Of a stretch of DNA of 64,000 bases, positions 19,582 through 46,363 are shown piece after piece; within the stretch, counting starts at the first letter, position 1; every line of letters begins with the position of its first letter. The position numbers and the translations under genes are program-made. The notes under the pieces were generated by a model, which was not told where the DNA came from, ran no database searches, and was given only the letters and a program-made list of their open reading frames with translations. This stretch comes from an uncultured Caulobacterales bacterium (lineage in GTDB: Bacteria > Pseudomonadota > Alphaproteobacteria > Caulobacterales > Caulobacteraceae), in the NCBI GenBank assembly GCA_903840435.1, contig CAIMFV010000006.1:22415-86414 (forward strand). Reading direction: 5' to 3'.

Positions 19582-21006
19582 CTAGCCGCCATAACCGATG
19601 GTTGCCTTGGTTTCGAGGAATTCGTCAAAGGCGTGGTCGCCCCACTCGCGGCCATTGCCCGATTGCTTATAACCGCCGAAAGGGGCCATCAGATCGGTGG
19701 TCGCGCCATTGAGAATGACCTGACCGGCTCGCATCTGCGCGGCGACGTCACGACACTCCTGAATGTCAGCGCCCTGGACATAGGCAGCGAGGCCGTACTC
19801 GGTGTCATTGCCGATCCGAATGGCCTCATCTAGGCTGTCATAGGGAAGGATGGCGAGCACCGGGCCAAAGATTTCCTCCTTGGCGATGGTCATGTCGGGG
19901 GTGACGTCCGCGAACACGGTTGGCTTGACATAGTAGCCCTTGTCCAAACCCTCCGGACGGCCAAGTCCGCCAGAGACGAGCGTCGCGCCTTCATCAATGC
20001 CCTTTTTGATCAGGCCTTGAATCTTATTCCATTGCACTTCGGAAACCACGGGTCCGAGTTGGGCATTGCCGTTCGGATCGCCGACCGTCGTCGCATCCGC
20101 GGCTTCCTTGGCATAGGCGATCACCTCGTCGCGCTTGGTACGTGGCGCCAGCATGCGGGTGGGCGCGTTGCAGGATTGGCCAGAATTCATCATCACGCCT
20201 TGGACGCCGCGTTTGACGGCGGCGGCCAGATCGACATTTTCGAGAATGATGTTGGGCGACTTGCCGCCCAATTCCTGATGGACCCGCTTGACCGTCGCCG
20301 CCGCGTTGCGGGCCACGTCGATGCCGGCCCGGGTCGAGCCCGTGAACGAGACCATGTCGACGTCCGGATGGCTGGAAATAGCCGCTCCCACGGTCGGGCC
20401 ATCGCCATTGACCATGTTGAACACGCCCGCAGGCACGCCCGCCGCATGCATGATTTCGGTCCAGATATAGCCGGAGAAGGGTGCGACTTCCGACGGCTTT
20501 AGCACCATGGTGCAGCCCGTGGCCAAAGCGGGAGCGACCTTGGTGGCGATCTGATTGATCGGCCAGTTCCACGGCGTGATAAAACCGCACACGCCGATGG
20601 GCTCCTTCGAGATCAAGGTGCCGCCGCGCTGATGTTCAAATTCGTAAGACTTCAACACTTCGATGGCGGTCTGCATGTGGCCAACGCCCATGGCGGCTTG
20701 GGCGCGTTGCGACAGCCAGCCCGGCGCACCCATTTCTTCGGTGATGGCTTCGGCCATTTCAGCGTAGCGCTTTTTATATTCTTCGATGATGCGCTCCATC
20801 AGATCGATGCGTTCGGCGCGGCTGGTGCGCGAAAAGCTTGCGAAAGCTGCCTTGGCGGCCGCGACGGCCTTATCCACATCGGCCTTGGCGCCCAGGCTAA
20901 TGTGGCCAGCCACACCTTCGGTCGCAGGATTGATCACTTCAAGCGTCTTCGGCGTGACCGGATCAACAAAGGCCCCGTTGATGTAGAATTTCAGATAGTC
21001 GCGCAT
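19582..21006 (-). CDS. NAD(P)-dependent aldehyde dehydrogenase
   Basis: ALDH family blocks (ELGGKSP, catalytic NSGQSC region); start placed at MRDYLKFYINGAF. Confidence 0.85.
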   Translation of the reverse strand: MRDYLKFYINGAFVDPVTPKTLEVINPATEGVAGHISLGAKADVDKAVAAAKAAFASFSRTSRAERIDLMERIIEEYKKRYAEMAEAITEEMGAPGWLSQRAQAAMGVGHMQTAIEVLKSYEFEHQRGGTLISKEPIGVCGFITPWNWPINQIATKVAPALATGCTMVLKPSEVAPFSGYIWTEIMHAAGVPAGVFNMVNGDGPTVGAAISSHPDVDMVSFTGSTRAGIDVARNAAATVKRVHQELGGKSPNIILENVDLAAAVKRGVQGVMMNSGQSCNAPTRMLAPRTKRDEVIAYAKEAADATTVGDPNGNAQLGPVVSEVQWNKIQGLIKKGIDEGATLVSGGLGRPEGLDKGYYVKPTVFADVTPDMTIAKEEIFGPVLAILPYDSLDEAIRIGNDTEYGLAAYVQGADIQECRDVAAQMRAGQVILNGATTDLMAPFGGYKQSGNGREWGDHAFDEFLETKATIGYGG

Positions 21007-21304
21007 GTCATCCTCCCAGATGAACGAATGTTCTCGCCGAGACGGCTTTGAGCCGCATATCGCCCGATCGCGTCGCCTTCGACGCCCCATGGTTCGAAGA
21101 CTATAGTAACGATTGGAGAGGGCGGGAAAAGGGCGTTCGCGCCAGATTTCTGCGAATTCTCAGGCCAAGCGCCACATTCGTTTCGGCTGTTTCGCTTGAC
21201 TCTGCATCCCCCTGGCTTTAAGGGAGCGCCTCTTGCGTAGGGGCCTTGTCTTAAGGGTCTCGTCGCTCATCCTATTGTCTTCCATCGCGCTGAAGGTTTT
21301 TTCC

Positions 21305-21610
21305 ATGTCGCGTCGCTGCGAGCTTACGGGCGTGGGCCCAATGGTGGGTCACAATGTGAGCCACTCCAATATCAAAACCAAGCGTCGGTTCTTGCCGTCC
21401 TTGCAGGCGATCAGCTTGCAGTCGGACTCGCTCGGCCAGACCTTCAAGCTGAAGATCAGCTCGGCAGCTCTGCGGACGGTGGATTTCCGTGGCGGTCTGG
21501 ATGCGGTTCTGCTGAACAGCCGGGACGAAGTGCTGTCGCCGCGCGCTTTGAAGATCAAGCGCCAGGTTAAGGCGAAGTTGGCGGCCCAAGCGCCGGCGGA
21601 AGCGGCCTAA
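21305..21610 (+). CDS. rpmB: 50S ribosomal protein L28
   Basis: [34 protein letters not shown] matches L28 N-terminus; about 101 aa. Confidence 0.8.
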
Positions 21611-21704
21611 TTTAGCCTTTAGTCACGGTTTAAGGTTTTGAAGGCCTCGTCCCTGACGGGGCCTTTTCCTATGTAGGCCTCATCACCGCCTTCAGGAGCC
21701 GATC

Positions 21705-22529
21705 ATGCCGATCACGCCTGCCGACCTCCGCGCGTTCAAAGCGCGCCGGGAGCCCATTCCGGTGATCACGGCCTATGATTATCCATCGGCCCGTTTGGCC
21801 GAGGCGGCAGGGGTTCCGGTCCTGCTGGTCGGAGACTCGGTTGGCATGACCGTGCTCGGCGCTGCAACCACGCTCGGCGTCACACTCGACATCATGGTCC
21901 ACCATGCCCGCGCCGTGGCCAAGGGCGCAAACGAGGCCTTGGTAATCGCCGATCTGCCCTTTCTGACCTATGCCGATCCGATGATGGCCGTGGCGTCAGC
22001 CGGACGCTTACTGCAGGAGGCCGGTGTGCACGCCGTCAAGCTGGAAGGCGGATTGGCGGTGGTCGAGACAGTGAAAAAGCTGACCGAGCTTGGCGTGCCG
22101 GTCATGGGCCATCTCGGCTTTACGCCCCAATCTCAGCACCAGCTGGGCGTCAAGGTCCAGGCTAAGGATGAGGCGGGCGCGCGCCGCCTGCTCGCCGACG
22201 CCTTGGCCTTGGAAGCGGCGGGGGCCTTTGCAATAGTGCTCGAGCTGGTGCCCGCCGCGCTCGCCGCCGCCGTCAGCCAGCGCCTCAGCATCCCAACCAT
22301 TGGGATCGGTGCGGGCGGCGGCTGTGATGGTCAGGTCCAGGTTTGGCACGACCTGTTGGGGCTGGGCGAAGGCCGCCCCCGCCGCCACACCAAGGTGTTC
22401 GCCGAGGCGGGCGCGACGATTACCGAGGGCTTGAAGGCCTATGTGGCCGAGGTCAAGTCGGGGGCCTTTCCCACCAAAGCCAATGGCTCGTCGATGGATG
22501 CCGATGTGCTCGCGCGGGCCTTGACCTAA
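21705..22529 (+). CDS. panB: 3-methyl-2-oxobutanoate hydroxymethyltransferase
   Basis: 274 aa, PanB blocks (ITAYDYPSA, GHLGFTPQS); followed by panC. Confidence 0.9.
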   Translation: MPITPADLRAFKARREPIPVITAYDYPSARLAEAAGVPVLLVGDSVGMTVLGAATTLGVTLDIMVHHARAVAKGANEALVIADLPFLTYADPMMAVASAGRLLQEAGVHAVKLEGGLAVVETVKKLTELGVPVMGHLGFTPQSQHQLGVKVQAKDEAGARRLLADALALEAAGAFAIVLELVPAALAAAVSQRLSIPTIGIGAGGGCDGQVQVWHDLLGLGEGRPRRHTKVFAEAGATITEGLKAYVAEVKSGAFPTKANGSSMDADVLARALT

Positions 22530-22532
22530 GCC

Positions 22533-23375
22533 ATGCAGATTTGTCGAACCGTTGCAGAATTACGCGCCGCCCGGGCGCGGTTTGGCGCACTCGGCTTTGC
22601 GCCAACCATGGGCTATCTGCATGAGGGCCATTTGGGCTTGGCGCGACGGGCCAAGGCGGAGTGTGGCGCGAGTCTGGTCAGCATCTTCGTCAACCCGACT
22701 CAGTTCAGCGCCGGCGAGGATCTTGAACGCTATCCCCGCGACGAAACGCGGGATTTGGCGCTGTTGGCGGAAGAAAAGACTGACCTCGTTTTTCTGCCCC
22801 ATGTGTCAGACATCTATCCGGAGGGGTTTTCATCTACCGTCGACCCAGGCCCCTTAGCCCATGTGCTCGAAGGCGCATCGCGCCCCGGCCATTTTGTCGG
22901 CGTCGCGACGGTGGTGGCGAAGCTCTTGAACATGGCCCAGCCGACCAAGGCCTATTTTGGTCAGAAGGATGCCCAGCAGTGTCTGGTGATCCGTCGCGTG
23001 GCGCGCGATCTCGATTTGCCAGTCGAGATTGTCATTCAGCCAACCGCCCGGGATGGCGACGGCCTCGCTCTGTCCAGCCGCAACGCCTATCTCTCCAAGG
23101 CCGAGCGCGCGGCGGCGCCTGTGCTCTTTCGTGCTCTGCAAGCGGTGCAAGCCCGCGTCGTCGAGGGGGAGCGGGACGCAGATCGGCTGCGCCAGATGAT
23201 GCAGGCCATGATCATGGCCGAGCCCTTGGCCGAGCTTGATTATGTCAGTCTGGCCGATGCCGAAACGCTGAGTGAATTGGCGCGCTTGGATCGCCCCGCC
23301 CTCGCCTCGGTGGCAGTGCGGTTTGGCGCAACGCGGCTGATTGACAATCTGGTGCTTCAGCCTTCCGCAGCATAG
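22533..23375 (+). CDS. panC: Pantoate--beta-alanine ligase
   Basis: PTMGYLHEGHLGL HIGH-type motif, 280 aa. Confidence 0.9.
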   Translation: MQICRTVAELRAARARFGALGFAPTMGYLHEGHLGLARRAKAECGASLVSIFVNPTQFSAGEDLERYPRDETRDLALLAEEKTDLVFLPHVSDIYPEGFSSTVDPGPLAHVLEGASRPGHFVGVATVVAKLLNMAQPTKAYFGQKDAQQCLVIRRVARDLDLPVEIVIQPTARDGDGLALSSRNAYLSKAERAAAPVLFRALQAVQARVVEGERDADRLRQMMQAMIMAEPLAELDYVSLADAETLSELARLDRPALASVAVRFGATRLIDNLVLQPSAA

Positions 23376-24343
23376 ACGCCACGGGCGATGGCGCGGGCCA
23401 AGACGTCCGCCGCCGCCGCGCCCAACCGCGCCACCTGAAAGGCGCGACCTTCAGGTCCAAGCTCGGTCGCCCCACTTGCGGCGCAAATGACCAGATCGCC
23501 GTCAAAGGGCGTATGAGCCGGGCGAATGGCGCGGGCGAGGCCGTCCTGCGCCATCATGGCCACCCGCTGACATTCAGGCCCGGACAGATCAGCGCTGACG
23601 GCCACGGCGCAGAGCGTGGTTGCCGCGCCGGGCTTGGCTAAAGCGAGGCGGCTCAGCTTGCTATCCAGGGGAAGTGGGTCGTGCAGGGAGGCGGTTCCGC
23701 TGCCACGCCCACCAAATTCGGCTCCCCATTCGAACGGAGCGGCAAAAAACCGTCCCGCTGTATCGCCATAGACCGACCCGACCGGATTGACTGCCGCCAG
23801 CGCGCCTACCACCAGCCCATCGCCCAGGTCGAGCGAGGCGGACCCGATGCCGCCCTTGGCGGTCCCGGCCATAGCGCCGCAGCCCGCGCCAACCGCGCCT
23901 AAGTCAAACATCTCGCCAGCCATTTCGACCGCTTCCATGCCGAGGCTGCGGTAAGGCGGCATCGTTCCCCAGGCCTTGTCGCCGCCATTGGACAGATCGT
24001 GCAAACAGGCGCCGACGACAATCGGAATGGCGTGGGGTTCGGCTCCCAGGCGCAGGCCTTCATCCCTGGCTGAAAGCGCCACGGTCACGCCATCGGCGGC
24101 GGCAAGTCCAAAGACAGAACCGCCGGAAAATACCACGGCATAGGCCCGGTCGACCAGATTGGCGAGGCCCAAGACCTCGATCTCCCGCGTCGCTGGCCCG
24201 CCGCCCCGCACGTCCGCCGCCGCCGTCCAGCCGCCCGGCAGGAGCATGACGCTAACCCCGGTCCGGGCGCTCGCATCGGTGGCATGGCCGACCAACAGCC
24301 CTGCGACATCGGTGATCAAATTCTTTCGACCCGGCTTCATCAT
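23357..24343 (-). CDS. P1/S58 family peptidase (DmpA / L-aminopeptidase-D-esterase-like)
   Basis: N-terminal ITDVAGLLVGH and autoproteolytic GG/S region typical of DmpA/OAT-fold Ntn hydrolases. Confidence 0.75.
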   Translation of the reverse strand: MMKPGRKNLITDVAGLLVGHATDASARTGVSVMLLPGGWTAAADVRGGGPATREIEVLGLANLVDRAYAVVFSGGSVFGLAAADGVTVALSARDEGLRLGAEPHAIPIVVGACLHDLSNGGDKAWGTMPPYRSLGMEAVEMAGEMFDLGAVGAGCGAMAGTAKGGIGSASLDLGDGLVVGALAAVNPVGSVYGDTAGRFFAAPFEWGAEFGGRGSGTASLHDPLPLDSKLSRLALAKPGAATTLCAVAVSADLSGPECQRVAMMAQDGLARAIRPAHTPFDGDLVICAASGATELGPEGRAFQVARLGAAAADVLARAIARGVYAAEG

Positions 24344-24476
24344 GTCCCGATTGCCCGCTTCATCCGCCCGTTTGCATCCCCGTCTTTTTGTGAAACCCTA
24401 GCCGTGTGAAAAGGGAGCGCATCCGAGCCTGAGCCTAACCTGCTCTTGTCGGAAGAGGAAACAGAGAGAGAGATCC

Positions 24477-24881
24477 ATGGCCAAAGACCAACCTGCCCCC
24501 ATCGCTGCTTGGCATGCCTATGTCGCGGCCGATGACCCCGCCCTGTTGGACGTCATGTTGCATGATGAGGTGGTGTTCGAATCTCCCGTCGTCCACACGC
24601 CCCAACGGGGCAAGGCGATCACCATGGCCTATCTGCGCTCTGCCGCTCAAGTTCTCGGCACGCCGTCTTTCCGCTATCTTAATGAATGGTATGCGGAGCG
24701 CTCGGCCATCCTTGAATTTGCCTGCGAGATGGACGGTGTGAAGGTCAATGGCGTCGACATGATCTTTTGGGATGAACACGACAAGGTCACCCACTTTAAG
24801 GTCATGGTCCGCCCGTTGAAAGCCGTGAACCACCTGCACCAGAAGATGGGCGAAGCCCTGGCGGCCAAGGCAGCGGGATAG
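24477..24881 (+). CDS. NTF2-like (SnoaL-like) small protein
   Basis: 134 aa, alpha+beta cone architecture pattern; no catalytic assignment. Confidence 0.5.
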   Translation: MAKDQPAPIAAWHAYVAADDPALLDVMLHDEVVFESPVVHTPQRGKAITMAYLRSAAQVLGTPSFRYLNEWYAERSAILEFACEMDGVKVNGVDMIFWDEHDKVTHFKVMVRPLKAVNHLHQKMGEALAAKAAG

Positions 24882-24910
24882 GCTGCAGGGACAATAAGGG
24901 GATAGGGCGT

Positions 24911-26524
24911 ATGCGGATCAAATATTTCCTATTGATTTTCAGTCTTCTATCCCTGACCCCTCTGGGGGTGGCCAAGGCAGCATCCCTTCCGACTGGCGAT
25001 TTGATTATTGAAGGCGGCGGCCCGTCTTCACAGCAGGCCTTGCAGCGGATCAAGGCGATTATGGGTGCCAAGCGCCTGTGCGTCATCACGACCGCCAACC
25101 CTGACCCCTCCCAACTGGCCGAAGGCTTCGCCAAGCTGGGCCTGAACGCTCAGCCGATAAAGATCACCGCCGCCAATGCCTCAGCCCCGGCCAGGGTGGC
25201 CGAGTTGAGCGCCTGTGAGGGCTTTTACTTTGATGGCGGCTTGCCACGTCTCTTAACCGACGCCTTCATCGTGAAGGGAAGGGATTCTCTCGCGCTCGCC
25301 ACCATTCGTGCCCGGTTTCAAGAGGGGGCCATGGTGGCGGGATCCAGCGCAGGCGCGATGATCCTCGGCGACCAATCCCTGTGCACTTGTTCACCGGAAA
25401 CGAGTTTCAAAGTGCTGCACGGCACCCCGCCTGAGATCGTCCAGGGCTTTGGCTTTGTGCACCTGATTATCGACGCCCACGCCTTTATGCGTAACCTCTA
25501 TGGCCGCGAACTGATGGCCATGCAGTTGCAAGGCTGGCCGAAATTGCTGGCGATTGATGAGAGCACCGCCGTCGAGGTGCCGGGTGATGGATCAAACTGG
25601 CGCGTGCTGGGCGATTCCGCTGTTGCCCTGATCAAGCACCCGCCCAAATCCGCCAAGCCGTTGCGGGACTATGAGGTGTCACTGCTTCGGCGCGACGACG
25701 GGATTGATCCGGCAAGTATTGAAGCGGCGACCACCAACCGCAAGGCGGATCGCCATGATCATCAAGGGATTTCGGAAATCCTGCATTTGCCCGCTCAAGG
25801 CTTGCTGCAAATGGCGGCCCTCATCAGCGCCGAACAGGCCGAATCCTATGGCTGGGATTGGTTTTGGGACCCCGCCGCTCCGGTTCGCTTGCGCCTTGCG
25901 CTCACGGATGAAAGCCAAGCGTTCGAGAACCAGACGGAAAAGGGCGCGGCCAATGATTTGCTGACCCATTTGCGGTTTTCGGTGCAGATCCTGACACGGG
26001 CAGAGCTTGGGCTTGCCATCGAAGGGCGAGACGACCGGATTGCCAGCGATTGGGCCGTTCCCCCGTCTGACGGTCCACGCACCTCATGCATCTATCTGGC
26101 CATGACCCCGATGGCGGGTCCCGGCGTCACAACGGCTGATCGTCATGCCGTCCTGTCGGCGATCCAGTCTGGAGCGCGGTTGATCAACGCCCTGCCCAGC
26201 CAACCCGACGGAAAGGCCATGGCAATTCCAGGTTCAGTCCGCTTAGGATCAGCTGGGGCGTGTGACGCCACGCAAGGTGAGATCAGGCGTGAGATTAGGG
26301 GCGAAGTCATGGATCGCCTCGCCGTTCACTTGCGCGAAATTACCCACGCCAATTTCGATCAGCCGCTGATCTTCTACTGCGCCAATGAGCTGTGCTGGCA
26401 TTCCTACAATGCGGCGCAAAGGGCGCGGCTTCTGGGCTATCGCCGGGTCTATTGGTATCGTGGCGGCTTGCGCGATTGGCTTGCGCAAGGTGGCGCGGTC
26501 GAAAACATCGCTGACTCTTGGTGA
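24911..26524 (+). CDS. Secreted protein with N-terminal peptidase S51 (cyanophycinase/PepE)-like domain and C-terminal rhodanese-like domain
   Basis: Signal peptide; GSSAGAMILG nucleophile elbow resembling S51 serine; C-terminal IFYCANELCWHSY..GY..VYWYRGG..W rhodanese-like block (Cys present). Confidence 0.55.
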   Translation: MRIKYFLLIFSLLSLTPLGVAKAASLPTGDLIIEGGGPSSQQALQRIKAIMGAKRLCVITTANPDPSQLAEGFAKLGLNAQPIKITAANASAPARVAELSACEGFYFDGGLPRLLTDAFIVKGRDSLALATIRARFQEGAMVAGSSAGAMILGDQSLCTCSPETSFKVLHGTPPEIVQGFGFVHLIIDAHAFMRNLYGRELMAMQLQGWPKLLAIDESTAVEVPGDGSNWRVLGDSAVALIKHPPKSAKPLRDYEVSLLRRDDGIDPASIEAATTNRKADRHDHQGISEILHLPAQGLLQMAALISAEQAESYGWDWFWDPAAPVRLRLALTDESQAFENQTEKGAANDLLTHLRFSVQILTRAELGLAIEGRDDRIASDWAVPPSDGPRTSCIYLAMTPMAGPGVTTADRHAVLSAIQSGARLINALPSQPDGKAMAIPGSVRLGSAGACDATQGEIRREIRGEVMDRLAVHLREITHANFDQPLIFYCANELCWHSYNAAQRARLLGYRRVYWYRGGLRDWLAQGGAVENIADSW

Positions 26525-26600
26525 GAGCCTGGGTGGGGGACTTGAGTGAGGGACTTGGGGTGAAGCACTTAGAGGCAAGACTTGGAGGCAAGACCGGGCC

Positions 26601-27041
26601 GTGAGCGAGATCAACCTAACCCTCATCTATGACGGCCTCGGTCCGGTATTTTGGACCGGCGGACCAGAGCTTTTTGGGGTGCAGGATCGGGACGAGGCGC
26701 TACGCCCCGGTCGCGCTGGTGCCGATGGCACGCTCATTTTTGACCTAAGCTTGCGAGTCACAGGCGCGCCGCCAAAGCCGCCGGTTTTGAGCGGCGAGGT
26801 TGCCCATGGCCCGCCCGGCGAGCGGTTTCTTTATCTCAGCTGGCGTAATCGTGAGGGCAACTACGCGCAAAGGCTAAAGCTGCCGCTTTCCACCATCGGC
26901 TGGGACCTCATCGCCGCCGCCCAGGCCGAAAACCGCCCGCTTGTCGCCACGCTGGAGGACAAGGCCCCCAAAGCGACCAAGACCGGCGCCAATATTGGCG
27001 GAACCCGTCCGGTGACGTGGCGACTGGCCGCAAAGTCCTAG
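26601..27041 (+). CDS. Hypothetical protein
   Basis: 146-aa ORF with native-like GC and codon usage; no motif recognised. Confidence 0.4.
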   Translation: MSEINLTLIYDGLGPVFWTGGPELFGVQDRDEALRPGRAGADGTLIFDLSLRVTGAPPKPPVLSGEVAHGPPGERFLYLSWRNREGNYAQRLKLPLSTIGWDLIAAAQAENRPLVATLEDKAPKATKTGANIGGTRPVTWRLAAKS

Positions 27042-27051
27042 CCTCAGGCCG

Positions 27052-27456
27052 TCAGGCGCAAACCGACGCCGCCGCCAAGGCGTGAACCCGCCCAACCATG
27101 TCCTGCCAAGCCCGCTCTATCTCGGGAACGAACAGCGGGCCGAGCACTTCCCGCACCGCCGCCTGTACCGCATCGGCAAACAGCGGAAACACGTCGGGCG
27201 CAACGCCCAAGCCATCATGATTGACCGCCAAGGATCGGATCAGGGCCGAGCCGTAATAGTCCCCCCCCGCCATATCCAAAATCGCCTCAAAGAACTGCGC
27301 CAACATCTCACCCCGCACCGACCCGTCCGTGTCATTACAAAAAAACGCCTGCAGGTGCGGATGCTGGGCAAACAACACTCCATAGACCGCCCCCGTCAAA
27401 TCACCCCCCCGCTCGGCGGCGATCTCTAGGCTGGCGGTGATGGGGTTGGGGGTCAT
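27052..27456 (-). CDS. Globin-family protein (truncated-haemoglobin / group 2-like)
   Basis: About 135 aa, helical globin-like pattern (AVYGVLFAQHPHLQAFF...); last native-GC gene before AT-rich island. Confidence 0.5.
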   Translation of the reverse strand: MTPNPITASLEIAAERGGDLTGAVYGVLFAQHPHLQAFFCNDTDGSVRGEMLAQFFEAILDMAGGDYYGSALIRSLAVNHDGLGVAPDVFPLFADAVQAAVREVLGPLFVPEIERAWQDMVGRVHALAAASVCA

Positions 27457-27737
27457 GGGGGCGGGGGGGCGCTCAGGGTCCGAGAGTGGGCGACCGTTGC
27501 TATAGCGCAAATTGAGGGCTTAGGTCATGCCTCGAGCATGACCTAAGCCGACACCGGATGAATTCAAAACGTAGCTAAGTTTCGAAAATATGTTGTCGCC
27601 AGCTTTTATTACATTGAGGAATTATTTGTTGATTAATCAATATAAAATTACATCAGGAGAATATTTATATACGATAAATAAACACAAATAATATTTCCGG
27701 TACGTCTGGTATAGATTATTATTTACAAATACGTGTT

Positions 27738-28982
27738 TCAGATTTGACTGGGAATATCATATACCATCACAGTTATAGTGATTTCCCGATCCATGTCACC
27801 TGGATTGCCAAAAATATATTGAAACCGCGTCGAGCCTTGTATAACTGGGCCTCGCTTTTTGTGAGTATGGGTATCCATCACTTCTCGTATTTTTGTTACG
27901 ACTCCAGAGAGGCCTTTATTTTTATTGAAAATAACTAGAGCGGACTTTGTATCGCGCCACGTCAAATAGCTAAGAAGTTGATCTACTGCATCCAAGAAGC
28001 TTGTTTGACCCCGCCATATTTTGCATTCAGCGATAAATATATTGCGGCCTTCGGAGCGAACCAGAATGTCCGTTTTGCCATGAGCATTGAAGGTCTCACC
28101 AGTGGCCTGCCCCTCGTATTGACCGTTCAGTTGCACGAGGAAGTGTTCGCGGATGTCCTCTTCGTCCATTTTGGCAAAAGTTTGCGGGCTGCGCTCCATG
28201 ACCTTCGTCATATTGTCCATGACTGAAAGGATATGCTGGTAGTTCGACTCGTCTAGCGCTGGCTCTGGCACCCAAGCGGCGAGTCGCGAAGCCGACTGCG
28301 ACGGCGAGATTTTTCGGTTCACATCTTCAGCCTTATAGACTTTTGGTGCGTCGGCTCGAAGCCTCATCGGAAACCCGAGGGTGGCAACAAGGTTCTTGTT
28401 GTGCAAAATTTCCGCGCGGCGACGGGGAATGTAAGAGCGTGCAATGGACTCCATCTCAACCTTTGCGGTTGAAAGGTCGCGCTCCAGAGTGGAGAGGTGC
28501 TGCCCGATGCTAGTTATCTCGCTTTCCAGCTCTACTTTGAGCTGGTCGCCCGACCTGTCGGAGGTCAGCATTGGCAGCATCAGTTCATGAGCCTCCAGAA
28601 TAGCTTTCGGTCCCGGTAGCGTTCGACTTGAAGGCCCGATCTGAAAATACTTGTAGTTCCCATCGAAGGGGATATGAAACACAACAACGTGTTTTTTGAT
28701 AATTTGGCGAGAGTTAGACCCGAAGTTGGAATAAATGTAACGGCCATGTTCGTTGATTACGCACTCGATTTCCGTTTCGTCTGTATATATTTCTTCGATG
28801 CGCAGGGTGGGTACTTTAAATGAACACCTTGCTATTGCATCCTCAATCAGAGACTCATCGGACTGATTTAAGATTTCGTCGTCTTTCAATCGCTTGAGCT
28901 CGGCGGTCGTTTGCTCAATAATCTCCCTAGCGACTTCGTATGAAAATTTCCCGCTGAATAGAGCAATGATTTTATCGATCAT
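27738..28982 (-). CDS. Horizontally acquired 414-aa protein with C-terminal PD-(D/E)xK-like nuclease motif; candidate single-gene anti-phage defence (Shedu-like) or abortive-infection nuclease
   Basis: Gene is about 40% GC against about 65% background, with AT-rich flanks on both sides; C-terminal GKTDILV...NIFIAECKIW fits the D...(D/E)xK restriction-endonuclease fold; size and architecture resemble DUF4263/Shedu; lies next to a VapBC TA pair. Confidence 0.55.
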   Translation of the reverse strand: MIDKIIALFSGKFSYEVAREIIEQTTAELKRLKDDEILNQSDESLIEDAIARCSFKVPTLRIEEIYTDETEIECVINEHGRYIYSNFGSNSRQIIKKHVVVFHIPFDGNYKYFQIGPSSRTLPGPKAILEAHELMLPMLTSDRSGDQLKVELESEITSIGQHLSTLERDLSTAKVEMESIARSYIPRRRAEILHNKNLVATLGFPMRLRADAPKVYKAEDVNRKISPSQSASRLAAWVPEPALDESNYQHILSVMDNMTKVMERSPQTFAKMDEEDIREHFLVQLNGQYEGQATGETFNAHGKTDILVRSEGRNIFIAECKIWRGQTSFLDAVDQLLSYLTWRDTKSALVIFNKNKGLSGVVTKIREVMDTHTHKKRGPVIQGSTRFQYIFGNPGDMDREITITVMVYDIPSQI

Positions 28983-29271
28983 TCGTTAAGGCCTCAGGAT
29001 TTAAATAAAACTATAGACTAGGCGTCGAGGAATTGCCAATGAAAGATCAACGGGCGGGCGTAATCCGAATTTCCGTTATTAGAGCAACCCTGCCGTTGAA
29101 ATATCAAGTTGCACCGTTCCTTTGGGGCTGGCCAGAGGTGTTGGGGCTCCCAGACGGTGCGAAGACCATTTTGTCGCCTCGTCCCGCCTAAAACCAGAAT
29201 GCCATGGCCAAGAATAAGGCTGACGAACCCGCTCAGAGCCCTATAAACCCCTGAAACCCAAGCCTTGAAAT

Positions 29272-29330
29272 TGATATCAAAAGAGCATAATTAATATCAA
29301 AGCTATCTTATTTTAAGAATTGATATCAAA
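29272..29330 (+). promoter_or_regulatory. Three copies of palindrome TTGATATCAA (one variant TTAATATCAA) immediately upstream of antitoxin start; likely VapB/FitA-type autoregulatory operator
   Basis: aTTGATATCAa at about 29272, aTTAATATCAa at about 29292, aTTGATATCAa at 29321-29330; ATG at 29331. Confidence 0.55.
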
Positions 29331-29585
29331 ATGCCCGCCGTGACCATTCGTAATCTGTCGGAAGAAACCCATCGGGCGTTGAAGGTCCGGGCGGCGCAGC
29401 AGGGCCGCAGCACCGAGGCGGAAATTCGCCACATCCTTGAGCAAGCGGTTCGGCCAGCCTCCCGCATTCGGTTGGGGTCGCTACTGGCGGAAATCGGGCG
29501 CAGTGCGGGTCTGACGGATTTGGATTGCGCTGTGTTTGACGACCTTCGGGATAAGACCGTCTCCGAACCGGAGGCGATGGAATGA
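29331..29585 (+). CDS. vapB: Type II antitoxin, ribbon-helix-helix (FitA/VapB-like)
   Basis: 84 aa, N-terminal RHH (VTIRNLSEETHRALKVRAAQQGRS); 4-bp ATGA overlap with PIN toxin. Confidence 0.8.
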   Translation: MPAVTIRNLSEETHRALKVRAAQQGRSTEAEIRHILEQAVRPASRIRLGSLLAEIGRSAGLTDLDCAVFDDLRDKTVSEPEAME

Positions 29586-29992
29586 TCCTCCTCGACACCA
29601 ACATCATCTCGGAGACCATGCGGCCGAACGGTGATCCGGCGGTGCTCGCTTGGCTCGACGCCCAAGCGGTTGAAACCCTATATCTTTCAACCATCACCGT
29701 GGCTGAGCTGCGATTTGGAGTTGCCGCGCTGCCGATTGGGGCTCGCAGACAAATCCTGCGCCGGGAGTTAGACGAGCGCCTCTTGCCGATCTTTGCGGGG
29801 CGCATCCTGTCGTTTTGCCTCGCCGCCGCCGACGCCTATGGGGATCTGCGCGCCAGCGCCCGCGCGGCAGGCAAGGCCATCCCGACAGCGGACGGCTATA
29901 TCGCCGCAATCGCAGTTGCGCACGGTCTGGCGGTTGCGACCCGCGATCGGAACCCCTTTGCCGCCGCTGGCCTCGCTGTGATTACGCCCTAG
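29582..29992 (+). CDS. vapC: Type II toxin VapC, PIN-domain ribonuclease (FitB-like)
   Basis: MILLDTNIISE (first acidic PIN residue), ...TRD near C-terminus; 136 aa. Confidence 0.9.
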   Translation: MILLDTNIISETMRPNGDPAVLAWLDAQAVETLYLSTITVAELRFGVAALPIGARRQILRRELDERLLPIFAGRILSFCLAAADAYGDLRASARAAGKAIPTADGYIAAIAVAHGLAVATRDRNPFAAAGLAVITP

Positions 29993-30992
29993 CAAACACC
30001 CCCCGTCCTCACCCGTCGTCTTCCCCAAACGCCGCGAGCGGGTGCCAGTCTGAGGGGGGGAGGCCGCAGGCTTCGGTGGCGTAGAGCTTTACCCCGTGGG
30101 CCGAGGCTTCGAGGAGGCGGCGCGGCGCATGCGTCATGGCGGCGGGGTGGAGGATGGCGCCGAGATCGTCTAGCCAGTGGGCGCCCATCGGGCGGCGCTC
30201 GATGGCGACGCCACGCCAAAAATCCTGGCCCTCCAGATCAGGGAAGGTTTTGGCCAAGATGTCGAGGGGGCGTGCAATTCATTCAAAGGGAAACCGGGTC
30301 AGGAGCAGATCAAAGATCACATCCTCACGCCAAGGGCGGGGGCGCGGAGATGCGAACTTTCCTGAGGCGTCCATGCGTCATCGTCCGCAGCTAGCAAGGT
30401 ACGAACACATAAAAGGCCCCCTGCGAGCAAGCTCACAGGAGGCAAGTTTCACTATCTCAGTCTCTGAAAAAAGTAATCGCGATTTACGCCTTCATAGAGG
30501 CCTGATTTGAGGCAGCATTTTTTGAAATAACCTCCGTGAGCCACAGGGGCAGAGGTCGTTTCGGCCGAGTTTTTCGATGAGCTCCTTATCCCCGTGCACG
30601 ACCCTGTCGCCACGTTTGACCCGGGTTTCGGAGGGGAAGCCTTTTCGGCGTTTAGAGGTGACCTCGAAAGCAAGGCGTTTCGGATAGGTCGCGTGGTGTC
30701 CGCATGGGAGCCTCCTGTCGTTCGGCCTTGGGCATGCATGCTCCAAGAGCGACGGGTTGCTAGCATTGGAATCCTGAGGCTTCAAATGATATTGCGGGCG
30801 CTCGGTGTTGGCATGCTTAGGCGCCGAGCTTACCAGGGCGTCTAAGGTCCGGCACCCCCGCGACCAGCCAGCCAATCGCGCGGATGTGATCGTTTGCAAG
30901 CTATGCGATCGATTGAATAGGACGGGCTCAGACATATCTGCTTCCACGGCCGCCTCTTAAGAGGGAGCGATTGTCGCCTACTCGGCGGCCCA

Positions 30993-33008
30993 ATGGGGTT
31001 TTCCATGTCATCGTTCGATGCGCTCGGACCGATCCTCGGTTCAGCGCTTGCCGTCGTGATCCTCGCGGCGCTCATTCGTGTGTCTGGGGCTATCCGCTAT
31101 ATTGGCAATACGCGCGTTGCCATTGTCGAAAGGCTATGGAGTCCGAAGGGCTCGCTAAAAGGCGGCCTGATCGCCTTGGGCGGCGAGGCGGGGTTTCAGC
31201 CAGACGTGCTGCGCGGCGGTGTGCATCTTTTCTTCCCGTTCCAATACCGGTTGCACATGGCGCCCTTGGTCACCATTCCCCAAGGCAGCATTGGCTATGT
31301 CTTTGCCCGCGACGGCGCACCCTTGGCCGCAGACCAAGCGCTCGCCGCCAATCCTGGCGCCACCGATTTTCAGGACGCGCGCAGCTTCTTGGCCGCCAAT
31401 GGCCAAAAGGGCCCGCAGCGCAAGATTTTGCGTGAAGGCACCTATGCGATCAACTTGGCCCAATTCATCGTCGTCACCCGCGACCAAGTGTTTTCCTTGG
31501 CCTTGGATCGCAATGAAGGGGCTTTGCTCGATCAAATGGTCGGGGTGATTGAAAGCCGTGGCGGCTTTGAGCCCTTGGTGATCAAGGATGCCGATGACCA
31601 GATCGGCGTGGTCATCGTCCATGATGGCCCAGGATTGCCAGCTGGCGAAATCATCGCCCCCACCGTCGGCACCGACCCGCAGGACAGCGCAACCTTTCAC
31701 AATAGCTTTCAGGAGCCGGAAAAGTTCCTCGCCGCCGGAGGTCGCAAGGGCCGCCAGTTGCAGGTGCTGGCCGAGGGCACCTATTATATCAACCGGCTGT
31801 TCGCTACCGTTGAGCGGATCCCCAAAACCGTCGTCGATGTCGGTCAGGTCGGCGTGGTGGTCTCCTATACCGGGGCCGCGGGCCTTGATACGTCGGGCGA
31901 TGACTATCGCCACGGCGAGCTTGTCGATCAGGGCGCACGCGGCGTGTGGAATGCACCGCTCTTGCCCGGCAAATACGCCTTCAATACCTATGCCGGGCAG
32001 GTCACCATGGTCCCGACCACCAACTTCATTCTGAAGTGGGAGGCCAATGCCATTGGTTCGCATCGGTTTGATGAAAACCTGGCCGAGGTCTCGTTGATCA
32101 CTCGCGATGCCTTTGAGCCAACCCTGCCGGTCTCGGTCGTCGTCCATATCGACTATCGCAAGGCGCCTTTGGTGATTCAGCGCTTTGGCGACATTAAGCG
32201 GCTGGTCGAACAGACCCTCGATCCGATGGTGTCGGCCTATTTCAAGAATATCGGCCAGACCCGGACCCTCATCGAGCTGTTGCAAGATCGCAGCGCCATT
32301 CAGCAACAGTCGTCTGAAGAAATGAAAACCAAATTCGCCCTCTATAATCTCGACCTGCAGGAGGTCTTGATTGGCACGCCCAGGCCGTCCGCCGAAGGCG
32401 ATGATCAGATTGAGCGGATCCTCACCCAACTGCGCCAACGCCAGATCGCGGACGAACAGGTCGGCACCTATGAACGGCAAAAGCTGGCGGCGCAGAAGGA
32501 GCGGGAACTTCGCGAAGCCGAAGCGCGCGCCAAGCAACAGGCCGCGATCACGGAATCGGAACTCTCCATCCAGGTCCAGTCCAATGCCGGTAAGGCCAAC
32601 CTCGCACGCTCGGAACAGGAAGCCGACCAGACCCGAACGCTGGCCCGGGCTGAGGCCGACCGCGCCAGGCTGTTGGGCGAGGGTGAAGCCAAACGCGTCA
32701 TCGCGCTCGCGGGCGCCGAGGCCGAACGCACCACCAAGGTCGGCCTTGCCCAGGCCGAAGCGATCCGGTCGCAGGTCGAGGCCTCAGGCGGCGCCCGTTA
32801 TCAGCTGACCCGACAGGTGGCCGAGCGCTTCGCCGAGGCCTTAGAGAAGTCCGGCGTCGATGTGGTGCCGAAGGTCTCGATCAGCGGGGCCAGCGGCGAG
32901 GGCGGCGGCGCGTCCGTCGTCCAAGGGCTGTTGACCCTCTTGTTGGCCGATCGCTTCGAACCCGATCAGGTCCGCCCAACAGAGCGCGCTGAAAGCCGTT
33001 CCGAATAA
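30993..33008 (+). CDS. Flotillin-family (SPFH/band-7) membrane protein with long coiled-coil C-terminus
   Basis: N-terminal TM anchor, SPFH-like core, C-terminal EAEARAKQQAA...RAEADRARLLGEGEAKR repeats typical of flotillin/YqiK. Confidence 0.8.
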   Translation: MGFSMSSFDALGPILGSALAVVILAALIRVSGAIRYIGNTRVAIVERLWSPKGSLKGGLIALGGEAGFQPDVLRGGVHLFFPFQYRLHMAPLVTIPQGSIGYVFARDGAPLAADQALAANPGATDFQDARSFLAANGQKGPQRKILREGTYAINLAQFIVVTRDQVFSLALDRNEGALLDQMVGVIESRGGFEPLVIKDADDQIGVVIVHDGPGLPAGEIIAPTVGTDPQDSATFHNSFQEPEKFLAAGGRKGRQLQVLAEGTYYINRLFATVERIPKTVVDVGQVGVVVSYTGAAGLDTSGDDYRHGELVDQGARGVWNAPLLPGKYAFNTYAGQVTMVPTTNFILKWEANAIGSHRFDENLAEVSLITRDAFEPTLPVSVVVHIDYRKAPLVIQRFGDIKRLVEQTLDPMVSAYFKNIGQTRTLIELLQDRSAIQQQSSEEMKTKFALYNLDLQEVLIGTPRPSAEGDDQIERILTQLRQRQIADEQVGTYERQKLAAQKERELREAEARAKQQAAITESELSIQVQSNAGKANLARSEQEADQTRTLARAEADRARLLGEGEAKRVIALAGAEAERTTKVGLAQAEAIRSQVEASGGARYQLTRQVAERFAEALEKSGVDVVPKVSISGASGEGGGASVVQGLLTLLLADRFEPDQVRPTERAESRSE

Positions 33009-33085
33009 AACCCAATGACGACCCCCTCTCGCCACAACGGCGGGAGGGGGCTTTGTGTGGTGGGCTGTGCGGCTGGATGTGGCCG

Positions 33086-36000
33086 TCAAGGATCGGTTTC
33101 CCGTGCGCGCGGCGCGAAGCGGCGGGCCGCTACGGCACCAGCGAGGAGAACGGCTCCGAGGGCGAGGAACGATCCTGCACGAATAATCCCCTCCAGTCGG
33201 GCCATGTCGAACAGGAATACTTTCGCCGTCGTGACGAGCAAAATCGCGAGGCCCAAACCCCGCAAGGCGCGGTCCCGCCGTCCAGCGCCGATGCTGAGCG
33301 CGAGCAAACCATAGATTGCCCATACCGCAGAGAAGGTCCAGGTCTCGAAACTGGCTTCGGCCAGTGGTGCGCGCATTGCCCCGCCGTGGAAGGCGTAGCG
33401 AACGACAAGCGTGATAAGGGCGAAGAGTTCCGCACCTGTGGCAATCAGCGACCCGAGCGCCAAGTGTACCCGTTGGGAGCGTCGGGCGTCGCGAACAGCT
33501 TCAAAACTCAGCAAACACCCCAGAACATAGAAGAGGCCTAGCAAGGCAGGTTGCTGCAGCCCGCCTGTCAGTGGCCCCCACCAAGGGCTGGCGCTGTATG
33601 CCAATATGACGAGTGTAACGGCTTGCGCGATCCAGGTGAGGAGGTGGGACGCCTCACCAAGGGGGGGCGCGATGTCGAAACGCCGCCGCAACTGCGCGAT
33701 GGCAAAGGCGAGCCCCGAAAAGGCGACCCCGTAGGCGGCAGTCTCGGCATAGCCAAAGTCGCCAAGGGGTAGAATGGGACCGTGGAATAGCCTGCGGATT
33801 TCGCTGATCATCCATATGACGACGAACAGAAAGGCGGTCGCCGCTGCGGCGGTCACCAAACCTCGAACCCGCGCTGCCAGTCGTCGGGTGATTTCGGCGA
33901 TCAGGGCTGCTGGCGCGAGGAGCCCCAGGGCGAGGGTGTCGAATACGGGCGGTCCCATCACCAACCTGACTTCGCCCCACCAGGGATGCCACGCGATGAC
34001 TTGAAGTCCAACGCCATGCAGGGCGCCTAAAGCCAAAAAAGCTGGTGCGCGGGCGCGACCAATTGCGGTCACGCCACCGCGAATCGACAGCATCAATGCC
34101 GCCGCAAGAATGAGCAACGTGCGCAAGGCCGCGATGCTGAAGGCATCTGTTGACCCACCCATGGCAAGACGCGTCGCGCTCCAACATTGCAGCACCAAAA
34201 ACGCACCGAGCAGGCCTGACATAACCGCAAGCGTGGATACGGCCTCGGCGCTCGTGGCCACCTCGCCGCGTCGCTTCAGCAATCTCCAGCTTACCACCTG
34301 GGTAAGGGTCGCCGCCGTTGCCGCCCCACCGATTACGATCCAGGTCTCCCGGCCGGAAAAAGCTGCGCCTGCGATCTCGGGAGAAAGGAGCGAGCCAAAG
34401 CTCGCCAAGGCAGCGACCGCGCCAGATTCGGCCATGCCGCGCCACTTAAGGCGCACGGCTCCCGCCGCGAGCACACAGGCCAAAATTCCGTAGGCGGTTG
34501 GCGCAATCCTGGCGTCCAATCCCGCGTGCATGGCCAGTCCGGTCGCCTCCGCTGCGGCCGCCACCCATGCTGCCGTGGCGAGGTCTTGTCTTGCCTCAGG
34601 AGCTTTGAGCGCAAAGAGCGTGGCGCCGCCAGCGAGTAAACCCGCGAAGGCGCTGTCGATGATCCAATCCCAACCTGGCGCCAAAATGATCAGAGCCCGC
34701 GCGGCTAAGGTGAGAGAGAGCGCCACGCCGCTAGCACCAATGACGCCAGACAGCTTTTGGCGTTCCCCCGTTAGGCCGCCGATCAAGCCACCAAGTCCCA
34801 CTGCCACTATGCTAAGGCAAAGGCAGATGAGCGTATGGTCGTCGCGGAACCCAAGGTTCGACATCAAGGCCGCCAGCACGACGACTGCGGTCGGCGCTGC
34901 CAGGGCGGCGGCGATCAGCACCTTCCGGCGGACGCCGAGGCTAACCAACCCGACCAAGGTAATCGTCGTCAGGGCGCTGTTGATCGAATTTGCCGGCCAA
35001 AGCATCAGGCTGAAACAACTCGATACGATAATGGCGGTCAGTGGCAGGCGGGCGACTAGGACCGTGCCTCGGTCTGCGCCGTCGCGGTCTCCGACCCGGG
35101 TGCGCCATAAAGCGGTCAACAGGGAGAAGGCGGGCGCTGTGATGGTGAGCAGCGTCATACCATCAAAATCCTGACTAAACCCACGAAGGAACGCCCAAAG
35201 CAAAGCCAAGGAGAGCGATCCGACGCCGACACGGCTCCAATTGCGGACCGCCGCCACAGCAAGGCCCGTCGCCAAAATCAAAGTGATGAAAAGATCCAAG
35301 CCCAGGTTACGCGATAGGTCCGAACCACTGAAAATCGGCGTTGCATAGGCTGCGACAATCGCCAACACTCCAAGTTCTTCGCTGTGCAACAGGGCAAGCG
35401 CCAGCAGGCCGAATGAGACACCGGCCAGCATGAGCGCCGCCACCCCGCCGGGAATGAAGCCGTACAAGCCGTAAGCTGCCCAAATGGCAGCATACAAAAT
35501 GGCTGAGCCGGCACCCGTGGTTAGGGCTGCAACCAGGAGATTTGGGGAGGCCTTGGCCCACACGCCCCGACGCAGCGCCTCGCCCAAAGCCAGCGTGACC
35601 AGCCCAAGTCCGCCCGCTGAAAGGATCCGCAGTTCAGGCGTGAACACCCCGGCTTGCGCCGCGTAGGCGACCAACAAAAGTCCGCCAAGCGCCAGAGCGC
35701 CGCCGCCAATCCAGGCGAGGCCGTTCTCCGATAGCCAGTCGGAGAGTGAAGGAAGCGGTTTGTAGGTCCGCGGTTCAATTCTGGGCGTCGCGGCGGGCGC
35801 GACCGACGGGCGATCCATATTTTCGAACGCCGCCGCCGCTTCTGCCCAAGCGACGGGCGGCTGCCGCTCCTGGACACGGCTTGCTTCGGGCTGTGGCTCG
35901 GTGGCAGGCGTGGCCAAAGGACGGACGTCCGCACGCAAAGGTGTTTCGGACTGGGGAGCCTCCTCCATTTTCTGCGGTTCTGGGGAGCGCGACGCTTGAA

Positions 36001-44417: not shown

Positions 44418-44554
44418 TTTGTTGGCGAGGGGCGTGTCAGACGATCCAGTCGATTGGCGAGCGTTATTGCTCTTGCGGGCAGACTTGCCCTCTATGCTCG
44501 CAAGCGCGTCCGGCTGAAACCACCGCCGCCGACGGGGCGACTTTTGCCCCTCTT

Positions 44555-46354: not shown

Positions 46355-46363
46355 CATGTAGGT

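Follow-up and report, generated by a model that had tools for sequence, protein, structure and literature searches.

A low-GC islet in a 64,000-nucleotide stretch of DNA from an uncultured Caulobacterales bacterium (hereafter the window) carries a single gene, and the 414-residue protein that it encodes belongs to PDC-S54, a family that PADLOC lists among candidates for phage defence. The gene is a further copy of that listed family, so its kind is not new. The protein has two domains, one of which is predicted to cut DNA in the manner of restriction enzymes. Taking the two parts of our reading jointly, we consider it somewhat better than an even bet that the islet is a horizontally acquired one-gene transcription unit and that its product works as a self-contained DNase, gated by a sensor, in defence against phages or plasmids.

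The family assignment comes from a full-length profile match to the PADLOC model PDC-S54 (PDLC05036; E = 8e-137, 455 bits; residues 7–411 of the protein against positions 6–407 of 410 in the model), the sole PADLOC match at E ≤ 10, which bears out an initial annotation of this DNA that had proposed a candidate anti-phage gene, defence being a prediction for the family. As set out in the available part of the source preprint, the PDC set comprises 145 phage defence candidates that lie inside loci of BREX, DISARM or type I restriction-modification (RM) systems (bioRxiv 10.1101/2024.01.29.577857). The window's protein shares with the family its single-gene architecture, and some of its homologues are found embedded in type I RM operons, in keeping with the family's discovery criterion, whereas the copy in the window has a globin gene on one side and a toxin-antitoxin (TA) pair on the other, outside any defence system. 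In the literature searched, some of it accessible in part, PDC-S54 is not mentioned, and nothing published on the function, structure or domains of the family was found.

Other searches returned little. No Pfam family matched the protein at E ≤ 1, NCBIfam gave one sub-threshold match and nothing above threshold, and a PDB sequence search together with a 40-sequence profile yielded nothing meaningful, only low-complexity helical matches to a polyketide synthase (PKS) linker. The suggested relationship to Shedu/DUF4263, NERD or Mrr-cat proteins was therefore rejected: DUF4263 (PF14082), NERD (PF08378) and Mrr_cat (PF04471) are all missing from the Pfam result, and no PADLOC Shedu model matched at E ≤ 10. 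As the PD-(D/E)xK superfamily is extremely divergent in sequence, the missing profile match weakens an assignment to that superfamily without excluding it. Searching the PDB by Foldseek with the full model brought up no significant match. Its weak matches, to glyoxalase and Pol-beta/NTase-like folds (E ≥ 0.058), were set aside because the N-terminal domain has no invariant acidic pair.

The islet is the compositional outlier of the window. Segment 27511–29330 has 45.5% GC against a mean of 60.9% across the window, the minimum among all 1820-bp windows within it (mean 0.61, sd 0.036; about 4.3 sd below). A fall from about 65% to about 40% had been described here; the drop is real, abrupt and seen nowhere else in the window, but both of its ends were overstated. 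The open reading frame itself, confirmed as a lone minus-strand gene, has 47.9% GC and climbs to about 54–55% in its middle. Its codon usage is atypical, as had been noted, with a GC3 of 0.535 against 0.69–0.76 in seven neighbouring genes.

The edges of the segment can be placed from its neighbours. Homology with a sister lineage starts only about 15–25 nt upstream of the globin ATG, which places the left-hand limit of the variable DNA at approximately 27470–27510, in agreement with the islet start first proposed. The AT-rich DNA 3' of the gene is part of the acquired segment. On the right, the last ~60 nt of the interval first proposed (29269–29331) are most likely part of the TA operon rather than of the islet. 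No tRNA gene is present across 20000–36000 of the window, a repeat scan of 27400–29400 found no convincing direct repeats flanking the gene, no integrase gene is encoded within ±10 kb of it, and an Rfam scan of both intergenic regions gave no match.

In the sister lineages the globin orthologue is 90% identical and has other genes beside it. One sister contig has a 424-aa ORF in the slot, which may or may not be related to PDC-S54, and retains the FitA/PIN pair. The identical 414-aa protein is present on 12 contigs, and an exact look-up of the flanking globin, made in search of an empty site, found the gene in 12/12 contigs. An apparent strain difference at one locus (L004) proved to be a gene-calling artefact, its DNA being 100% identical to that of L001.

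The neighbouring TA genes had been recognised from the start, and Pfam confirms a FitA-like ribbon-helix-helix (RHH) antitoxin followed by a PIN toxin, overlapping by 4 bp (29582–29585) in the layout of VapBC/FitAB type II systems. The pair is divergent from the 414-aa gene, 349 bp from its start, and has a host-like GC of 62–65%; as it is also retained beside another occupant of the slot, it is not a dedicated partner of the gene. RHH antitoxins autoregulate, and for this reason the three palindromes abutting the fitA start are probably the operator of the antitoxin. The view that the gene sits in a defence island did not hold up: none of ten neighbouring proteins matched PADLOC (0/10), and Pfam identifies the surroundings as housekeeping (globin, DUF5990, peptidases, Band_7, pantothenate genes and ribosomal protein L28). 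Pfam also found no methyltransferase within ±10 kb.

Table 1. Features of the islet, its gene and its immediate flanks, with positions counted from the first letter of the window.
Feature	Position	Strand	Basis or remark
Globin gene, conserved left flank	27052..27456	-	Pfam Globin
AT-rich 3' intergenic DNA	27511..27737	.	32.6% GC
Perfect 14+14 nt hairpin, arms 100% complementary, without T-run	27517..27549	-	repeat scan
PDC-S54-family protein gene, 414 aa, ATG start	27738..28982	-	stop codon 27738-27740
C-terminal PD-(D/E)xK nuclease-like domain, residues 245-414	27741..28250	-	
Putative catalytic block, residues 296-346	27945..28097	-	(near-)invariant in 40 + 149 sequences
Conserved basic linker, residues 202-244, predicted disordered in monomer	28251..28379	-	
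Single 57-residue helix, residues 145-201	28380..28550	-	DSSP on both models
N-terminal alpha/beta domain, residues 1-144: three helices and antiparallel sheet	28551..28982	-	
5' intergenic DNA with the gene's putative promoter	28983..29268	.	part of 45% GC stretch
Putative sigma-70-like promoter, TTGGCA / 18-nt spacer / TATAGT	29010..29039	-	consensus scan 10/12
Three TTGATATCAA palindromes (AATTGATATCAAAA) abutting fitA start	29269..29331	+	0/100 shuffles reach 3
fitA-like RHH antitoxin + PIN toxin	29331..29992	+	Pfam
fitA-like RHH antitoxin	29331-29585	+	PF22513, 8.8e-21
PIN toxin	29582-29992	+	PF01850, 5.8e-17

The intergenic regions contain candidate signals for a separate transcription unit (Table 1). 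The putative promoter, proposed from its match to the consensus, precedes the ATG by about 28 nt, and between the two stands a GAGG motif resembling a Shine-Dalgarno sequence. A 52-aa plus-strand ORF within the same 5' region is probably spurious. On the other side, the RNA fold of the 3' region has a z-score of −3.65, and the perfect hairpin there, which lies inside the segment absent from the sister lineage, may act as a terminator or insulator between the 414-aa gene and the globin gene; a terminator scan detected none.

The protein divides into four parts (Table 1). The N-terminal domain is acidic (family mean net charge −8.4), fast-evolving and has no confident structural relative; we propose, as a conjecture, that it is a sensor or specificity module. 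The long helix that follows has hydrophobic residues at 11/16 a/d positions in one heptad register and an invariant R188, and we propose from the models that it might serve as a coiled-coil, an oligomerisation element or a signal-transmitting one. The linker, with a pLDDT below 50 at residues 215–235, conserves R209 and P239-E240-P241 and has a family mean net charge of +4. Identity over all pairs of homologues rises along the chain, from 24% in the N-domain to 54% in the linker and 62% in the C-domain.

The C-domain is where the resemblance to nucleases lies. DSSP assignment of the AF2 model gives a helix at 274–288, a short strand at about 293–297, strands at 306–310 and 313–322, a helix at 326–339 and a strand at 346–353, which is the alpha-beta-beta-beta-alpha-beta core topology of PD-(D/E)xK proteins; pLDDT is mostly 81–96, with a dip at 298–300. 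The residues fall where that fold has them, with an aspartate opening the second core strand and the (D/E)xK motif lying on the third. The putative catalytic block contains E296, D305, E319-x-K321, Q335-xxx-Y339 and W342-R343-D344-x-K346. Residues 301–323 read HGKTDILVRSEGRNIFIAECKIW, exactly the C-terminal block first quoted from this protein, and its reading as D...E-x-K is borne out by conservation: D305, E319 and K321 are all invariant in a 40-sequence alignment, and in a 149-sequence alignment of homologues 29–43% identical to the window's protein they are kept in 148/149, 148/149 (the remaining one being D) and 144/149 sequences, respectively. Q335 and Y339, both within the helix that follows the ExK strand, are each present in 149/149. 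RecB-family nucleases typically carry a QxxxY motif behind the (D/E)xK strand, and its presence here would fit the RecB/Cas4-like branch of the superfamily.

PDC-S54 is a large and scattered family. It comprises at least 6,600 clusters (6,626 representatives) and occurs in at least 573 species across most bacterial phyla, with 22 plasmids among the locations of its homologues, archaeal ones included, and very rare occurrences in phage genomes (2/50,697 records). Its distribution among phyla is patchy, with identity of about 35–45% throughout. The gene is usually solo and in low-GC DNA, its GC being below that of the flanks in five genomes, which is every one examined. There is no fixed partner: when the neighbours up to four genes away at 91 loci were compared all against all by BLAST, the commonest neighbour family occurred at 7 of the 91, in variable position. 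Roughly 10% of loci lie within type I RM operons or next to them, and at five of them the order is hsdS, gene, hsdR, on the same strand and with 4-bp overlaps. RM and defence families of Pfam and PADLOC head the neighbour list of the homologues as raw counts, not as an enrichment (out of 299: N6_Mtase 6, Eco57I 6, ResIII 6, Methylase_S 4, Specificity_I 4+3 and REase_I 3, then type IIG 2, PDC-S35 2, CAP12-PCTIR TIR 2 and Phage_integrase 6). Four homologue loci examined singly gave three among housekeeping genes and a fourth in an integrase-bearing island.

Family membership, the arrangement of the domains, residue conservation, a nuclease-like predicted structure, the solo and mobile habit and the occasional placement inside type I RM operons are what the analysis shows. 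That the protein is an active nuclease, is gated by its N-domain, oligomerises and acts in defence we infer, and we suggest that these properties could be connected as follows. The C-terminal domain would be a metal-dependent PD-(D/E)xK nuclease, its active site formed by E274/E296, D305 and E319-x-K321, followed by the Q335-xxx-Y339 helix. The acidic, rapidly diverging N-domain, which is unlike a DNA reader, might sense a phage or plasmid cue or else restrain the nuclease. Communication between the two domains would run through the 57-residue helix and the basic linker, probably via oligomerisation and DNA contact. Once activated, the protein would cut DNA, so that either the invader is destroyed or the infected cell is stopped. 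No partner gene should be needed, and the unit would carry its own promoter and travel between genomes alone. In favour of a defence role are the PDC-S54 match, the embedding among hsd genes, the RM and defence neighbours, the modularity of the protein, the asymmetry between its N- and C-terminal parts, the lack of a partner and the mobility; against it count that defence is a prediction for the family, that no PADLOC match occurs among the ten neighbours and that three of four homologues lie amid housekeeping genes. The stronger proposal that PDC-S54 is an autonomous single-protein immune system of an undescribed kind, with an acidic sensor, coiled-coil, linker and RecB-like nuclease switched by a phage cue, we hold tentatively, at a little short of an even chance.

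One alternative is a solitary, directly acting restriction enzyme of type IV character, dependent on modification or sparing the host's own DNA in some other way, in which the N-domain would read a feature of foreign DNA and the C-domain would cut it with no abortive part. The window has no cognate methyltransferase, as expected of type IV enzymes, the variability of the N-domain could mirror shifting specificity, and homologues do lie inside type I RM operons, positions often occupied by Mrr, McrBC and GmrSD/BrxU-type enzymes. The part of the Payne preprint that was available includes a section on GmrSD-like embedded defences (bioRxiv 10.1101/2024.01.29.577857). The strong acidity of the N-domain throughout the family and the failure to find a Pfam DNA-binding domain that could serve as reader weigh against such an enzyme, and we regard it as unlikely. 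The RecB/Cas4-like motif brings to mind a housekeeping nuclease of repair or recombination whose place in AT-rich DNA is a coincidence, and the invariance of Q335-xxx-Y339 after the ExK strand would suit one. The patchy distribution at about 35–45% identity throughout, the GC below that of the flanks in every genome examined, the unconserved genomic context and the filling of the slot by other genes in sister lineages are together unlike a core repair gene, and this identity seems very improbable.

A third possibility is that the protein is a selfish or addiction toxin on mobile DNA, a nuclease that stabilises its islet or acts in a homing-like manner with no anti-phage benefit. The gene does occur solo, in sharply bounded low-GC DNA at many chromosomal sites that are unrelated to one another, here without integrase or flanking repeats, and also on plasmids; TA pairs are repeatedly adjacent, FitA/PIN in the window and Phd/RelE at a relative on a Pantoea plasmid; and the structural neighbours include a CdiA-CT DNase toxin. 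We nonetheless think it quite unlikely: no antitoxin or immunity partner is conserved, the FitA/PIN pair is host-like in GC and kept in a sister lineage with a different 424-aa ORF in the slot, and homing endonucleases thrive in phages, where this family is hardly found. Translationally coupled embedding in RM operons also better suits a cooperative immune role.

Several known systems offer points of comparison. With restriction enzymes of the BamHI/BstYI/OkrAI/BglII class the protein has 7–12% sequence identity and a putative structural similarity that Foldseek did not recover; unlike them it has no methyltransferase partner, carries a 245-residue N-terminal region, and has a QxxxY helix motif that is more RecB-like. 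Shedu (SduA), the analogy drawn in the initial annotation, would be alike in outline: a single-gene defence of similar size whose N-terminal part is regulatory and whose C-terminal part is a PD-(D/E)xK nuclease. By the profile searches given above, the window's protein is not a member. HamA of Hachiman, NucC of CBASS and type III CRISPR, and Can2 differ in that PDC-S54 has no helicase, cyclase or CRISPR partner, and activation by a cyclic oligonucleotide is not indicated for it. PrrC/RloC anticodon nucleases, Mrr, McrBC and GmrSD/BrxU resemble the approximately 10% of PDC-S54 genes that lie between hsd genes in the same orientation; however, PDC-S54 has no ABC ATPase, GTPase or DUF262/DUF1524, the folds and domains differ, and most members, the window's included, are solo.

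The nuclease module also occurs in another setting. On an E. coli IncHI2 plasmid it is joined to a different N-terminus and adjoins a DEAD/DEAH helicase. Identification of this nuclease-helicase pair as Hachiman was not supported by a PDB sequence search, the pair having no sequence-level match to HamA or HamB.

As one more copy of a listed family, the window's locus leaves existing knowledge unchanged. PDC-S54 itself is worth attention, being large, spread over many phyla and compact (one gene, ~410 aa). Not found in the literature searched, and added here, are the domain map, the candidate active site including QxxxY, the sharp difference in conservation between the variable N-domain and the nuclease, the evidence for a solo low-GC unit moving into a variable slot, and the link to a nuclease-helicase pair carried by plasmids of E. 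coli and Pantoea. If the immune reading is true, PDC-S54 would be among the more widespread uncharacterised defence families, reaching some archaeal plasmids, and its nuclease module would be common to an uncharacterised nuclease-helicase pair of enterobacterial plasmids. As a one-gene system for which the point mutants and the truncation to make are obvious, the family should be simple to test.

A minor observation concerns the slot between the globin and TA genes. Its alternative occupant in a sister lineage, a 57-aa fragment without a Pfam or PADLOC match, falls in a family of ~90-aa proteins, some of whose JGI records carry the name 'chromosome partitioning protein'.

The gene under study (27738..28982, minus strand, ATG start, 414 aa), which lies exactly where the initial annotation placed it, matches a single PADLOC model, PDC-S54 (PDLC05036; E = 8e-137), over nearly the full length of both protein and model. 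The earlier suspicion of an anti-phage gene is thus upheld to this extent: the locus adds one member to a candidate defence family that was already catalogued. The source of the PDC models is Payne et al. (bioRxiv 10.1101/2024.01.29.577857), and the name PDC-S54 was not found in the literature texts searched. The resemblance to Shedu/DUF4263 suggested at the outset found no support as kinship, nor did kinship with the NERD and Mrr-cat nucleases named there for comparison: the protein matches no Pfam family at E ≤ 1, DUF4263, NERD and Mrr_cat included, and no PADLOC Shedu model at E ≤ 10. These searches rule out Shedu membership; in outline the islet protein may still work in a Shedu-like way, as a single polypeptide regulated by its N-terminal part and cutting with its C-terminal one. 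An NCBIfam search gave one sub-threshold match and nothing above threshold, and PDB sequence searches gave no match.

The family is broad. A word-indexed search returned more than 4,600 relatives, and an exhaustive profile search yielded 6,626 cluster representatives (clustering at 50% identity), 2,429 of them at E ≤ 1e-30; the best 150 are almost all full-length proteins of about 400–420 aa. Homologues are encoded by at least 573 GTDB species representatives and occur in Proteobacteria, Cyanobacteria, Nitrospirota, Chloroflexota, Acidobacteriota, Planctomycetota, Firmicutes, Poribacteria and CPR lineages, with identity of about 35–45% across them all. They were also found on 22 plasmids, haloarchaeal and Spiroplasma ones among them, but only 2 of 50,697 phage records contain one. 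All annotated copies carry the name 'hypothetical protein'.

The islet (27511-29330) has a GC content of 45.5% against a window mean of 60.9%, the lowest value for any 1820-bp window (mean 0.61, sd 0.036). A drop from about 65% to about 40% was first described; it is real and unique in the window, but both figures were too extreme: the ORF has 47.9% GC, with about 54–55% at its centre, and the 3' intergenic stretch (27511-27737) 32.6%. GC3 is 0.535 in the ORF vs 0.69–0.76 in seven neighbouring genes. Membership of PDC-S54 together with horizontal acquisition is very probable for this gene. One contig of the metagenome-assembled genome GCA_903945125.1 has the same sequence as the window, and 12 contigs carry the identical protein with its neighbours unchanged.

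The adjoining toxin-antitoxin module was correctly recognised, 29331-29992 encoding a FitA-like RHH antitoxin that overlaps a PIN toxin; this pair, host-like in GC and also present in a sister lineage, is the sole relevant neighbour. The notion of a defence island fails, as none of the ten neighbouring proteins matches PADLOC and the Pfam context consists of housekeeping-type families (globin, DUF5990, S51 and S58 peptidases, pantothenate synthesis, Band_7, DUF2339). The slot between fitAB and globin is variable, with different genes in close relatives: the sister contig ERZ1426849 (globin 90% identical) has a 424-aa ORF without a Pfam domain there, and on another sister contig (L094:2-175) globin adjoins the end of a gene whose unrelated family consists of ~90-aa proteins that match nothing in Pfam or PADLOC; some JGI records of this family read 'chromosome partitioning protein'. 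Nucleotide homology between the window and the latter contig begins only about 15–25 nt upstream of the globin ATG, which puts the left end of the acquired DNA at roughly 27470-27510. No tRNA genes were found in 20000-36000, no flanking direct repeats in a repeat scan of 27400-29400, and no integrase genes within 10 kb on either side.

Features of the islet and its protein
Feature	Position	Strand	Description
Predicted sigma-70-like promoter	29039-29010	-	TTGGCA, 18-nt spacer, TATAGT; rated good
Hairpin	27517-27549		Perfect 14+14 nt inverted repeat, GGCTTAGGTCATGC-tcgag-GCATGACCTAAGCC; 3' region of islet gene, before globin
Three palindromes	29269-29331		TTGATATCAA; abut fitA; from repeat scan
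Long helix	residues 145-201		Single, 57 residues; heptad-like hydrophobic register (11/16 a/d positions); R188 invariant
Linker	residues 202-244		Predicted disordered; pLDDT < 50 for 215-235
C-terminal domain	residues 245-414		Conserved, 62% identity; helix/strand order of a PD-(D/E)xK core

A GAGG motif precedes the ATG of the islet gene. The hairpin lacks a T-run and may be a terminator, an operator or a recombination site; sequences close to one of its arms stand at 8739, with 1 mismatch, and at 22519, with 2. The palindrome AATTGATATCAAAA is present in three copies (one with 2 mismatches) spaced by 20 and 29 nt, the last ending at the fitA start codon, and three matches were obtained in 0 of 100 shuffles. 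The RHH antitoxin probably uses these palindromes as its operator, and so the right end of the interval first reported most likely belongs to the toxin-antitoxin operon.

From a 40-sequence alignment AlphaFold2 gave a confident model (mean pLDDT 85.4), which divides the protein into four parts; residues 1-205 modelled separately gave a better result (pLDDT 90.4, pTM 0.79). The linker is conserved despite its predicted disorder (54% all-pairs identity; R209, P239-E240-P241) and is basic, with an average charge of +4. In the modelled core the second strand begins with D305, the third bears E319-C320-K321, and the following helix carries Q335 and Y339 (residues 301-323 are HGKTDILVRSEGRNIFIAECKIW). 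Conservation of the D/E/K triad, on which the nuclease proposal had been staked, was confirmed: all three residues are invariant in 40 homologues (39–62% identity), and in a wider alignment of 149 sequences (the islet protein and 148 cluster representatives 29–43% identical to it) D305 is kept in 148, E319 in 148 (the exception being D) and K321 in 144, with E274, R278, E296, F298, G302, Q335, Y339 and W342 present in all 149. The C-terminal domain is predicted to be an active nuclease, which we consider likely.

Several plasmid matches cover only residues ~240-410, suggesting from sequence that the predicted nuclease domain is a reusable module. The E. coli IncHI2 plasmid NZ_ON960341.1 (L095:4467-8892) encodes a 344-aa hypothetical protein that aligns with residues 251-414 of the PDC-S54 profile (hhalign probability 99.1%, E = 9e-19) and keeps GKxD, ECKIW and QLLxY, with a different N-terminus. 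Its gene lies directly upstream of one for a 1,020-aa DEAD/DEAH helicase, and the two may form an uncharacterised nuclease-helicase system; a PDB sequence search matched them neither to Hachiman HamA/HamB nor to any solved structure. On the Pantoea plasmid NZ_CP134740.1 (L096:4467-5501) the same gene adjoins a Phd/RelE toxin-antitoxin pair.

The homologue stands alone amid unrelated housekeeping genes in Lichenihabitans, Rhizobium leguminosarum and Stappia, and in all five genomes examined its GC (0.48–0.55) is lower than that of its flanks (0.51–0.66). The commonest neighbour family is common to at most 7 of 91 loci, which argues that PDC-S54 has no obligate partner. Among 299 proteins up to three genes away at about 69 loci, the Pfam families found most often included N6_Mtase, Eco57I, ResIII and Phage_integrase (6 each), Methylase_S (4), HsdM_N, HSDR_N, T1RH-like_C, AAA_21 and the CAP12/Pycsar TIR domain, and PADLOC identified type IIG enzymes, PDC-S35 (a further candidate) and type I subunits for specificity (4+3), methylation and restriction. 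This restriction-modification enrichment is qualitative, the counts coming from homologue loci alone, and roughly 90% of loci have no such neighbour. At five loci from five different phyla (L023, L028, L055, L063, L077) the homologue sits between hsdS and hsdR on the same strand with 4-bp overlaps, maps that independently reproduce the 'embedding' behind the PADLOC candidate. In Paradevosia the homologue shares an island with a Schlafen/AlbA_2-domain gene and an integrase. This island (L006:3978-17723; P. shaoguanensis CP068983.1) resembles an integrative element with many candidate defence genes; the integrase is of the tyrosine type, and the island also encodes an ADP-ribosylglycohydrolase, HTH regulators, a 775-aa protein without a Pfam match and an 874-aa protein weakly matching family-B DNA polymerases.

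For a nuclease with neither methyltransferase nor immunity gene there can be only two options: to depend on DNA modification or to be held inactive. The former would make the protein a direct type IV-like restriction enzyme, which we regard as unlikely given its acidic N-domain without a reader fold; the same features favour the held-inactive option. A selfish or addiction nuclease is more doubtful still, and a housekeeping repair nuclease highly improbable. We lean towards defence by a self-contained, gated DNase, the reading with most support, in which the conserved PD-(D/E)xK domain would be the effector. The N-domain, acidic and quick to diverge, would act as sensor or autoinhibitor rather than DNA reader, and the long helix and basic linker would couple the two, probably via oligomerisation and DNA contact. 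As a simple and broad family with an uncharacterised N-domain, PDC-S54 is a good experimental target.

GC is also lowered in two other stretches of the window. Between the PIN toxin and Band_7 genes (30009-30947, minus strand) lie two ORFs, one of 82 aa without a Pfam match and one of 151 aa with a SEC-C zinc-binding motif at its C-terminus as sole feature, and GC dips to 0.53–0.55 around 30300-30750. Next to a NudC-like NUDIX hydrolase gene (42381-43325), about eight co-directional ORFs (43407-51145, minus strand; 445, 309, 254, 306, 339, 305, 213 and 325 aa), of which only one (45481-46245) has a Pfam match, a LysM domain, have a lower GC of 0.515–0.53 per 1820 bp and could be another acquired region.
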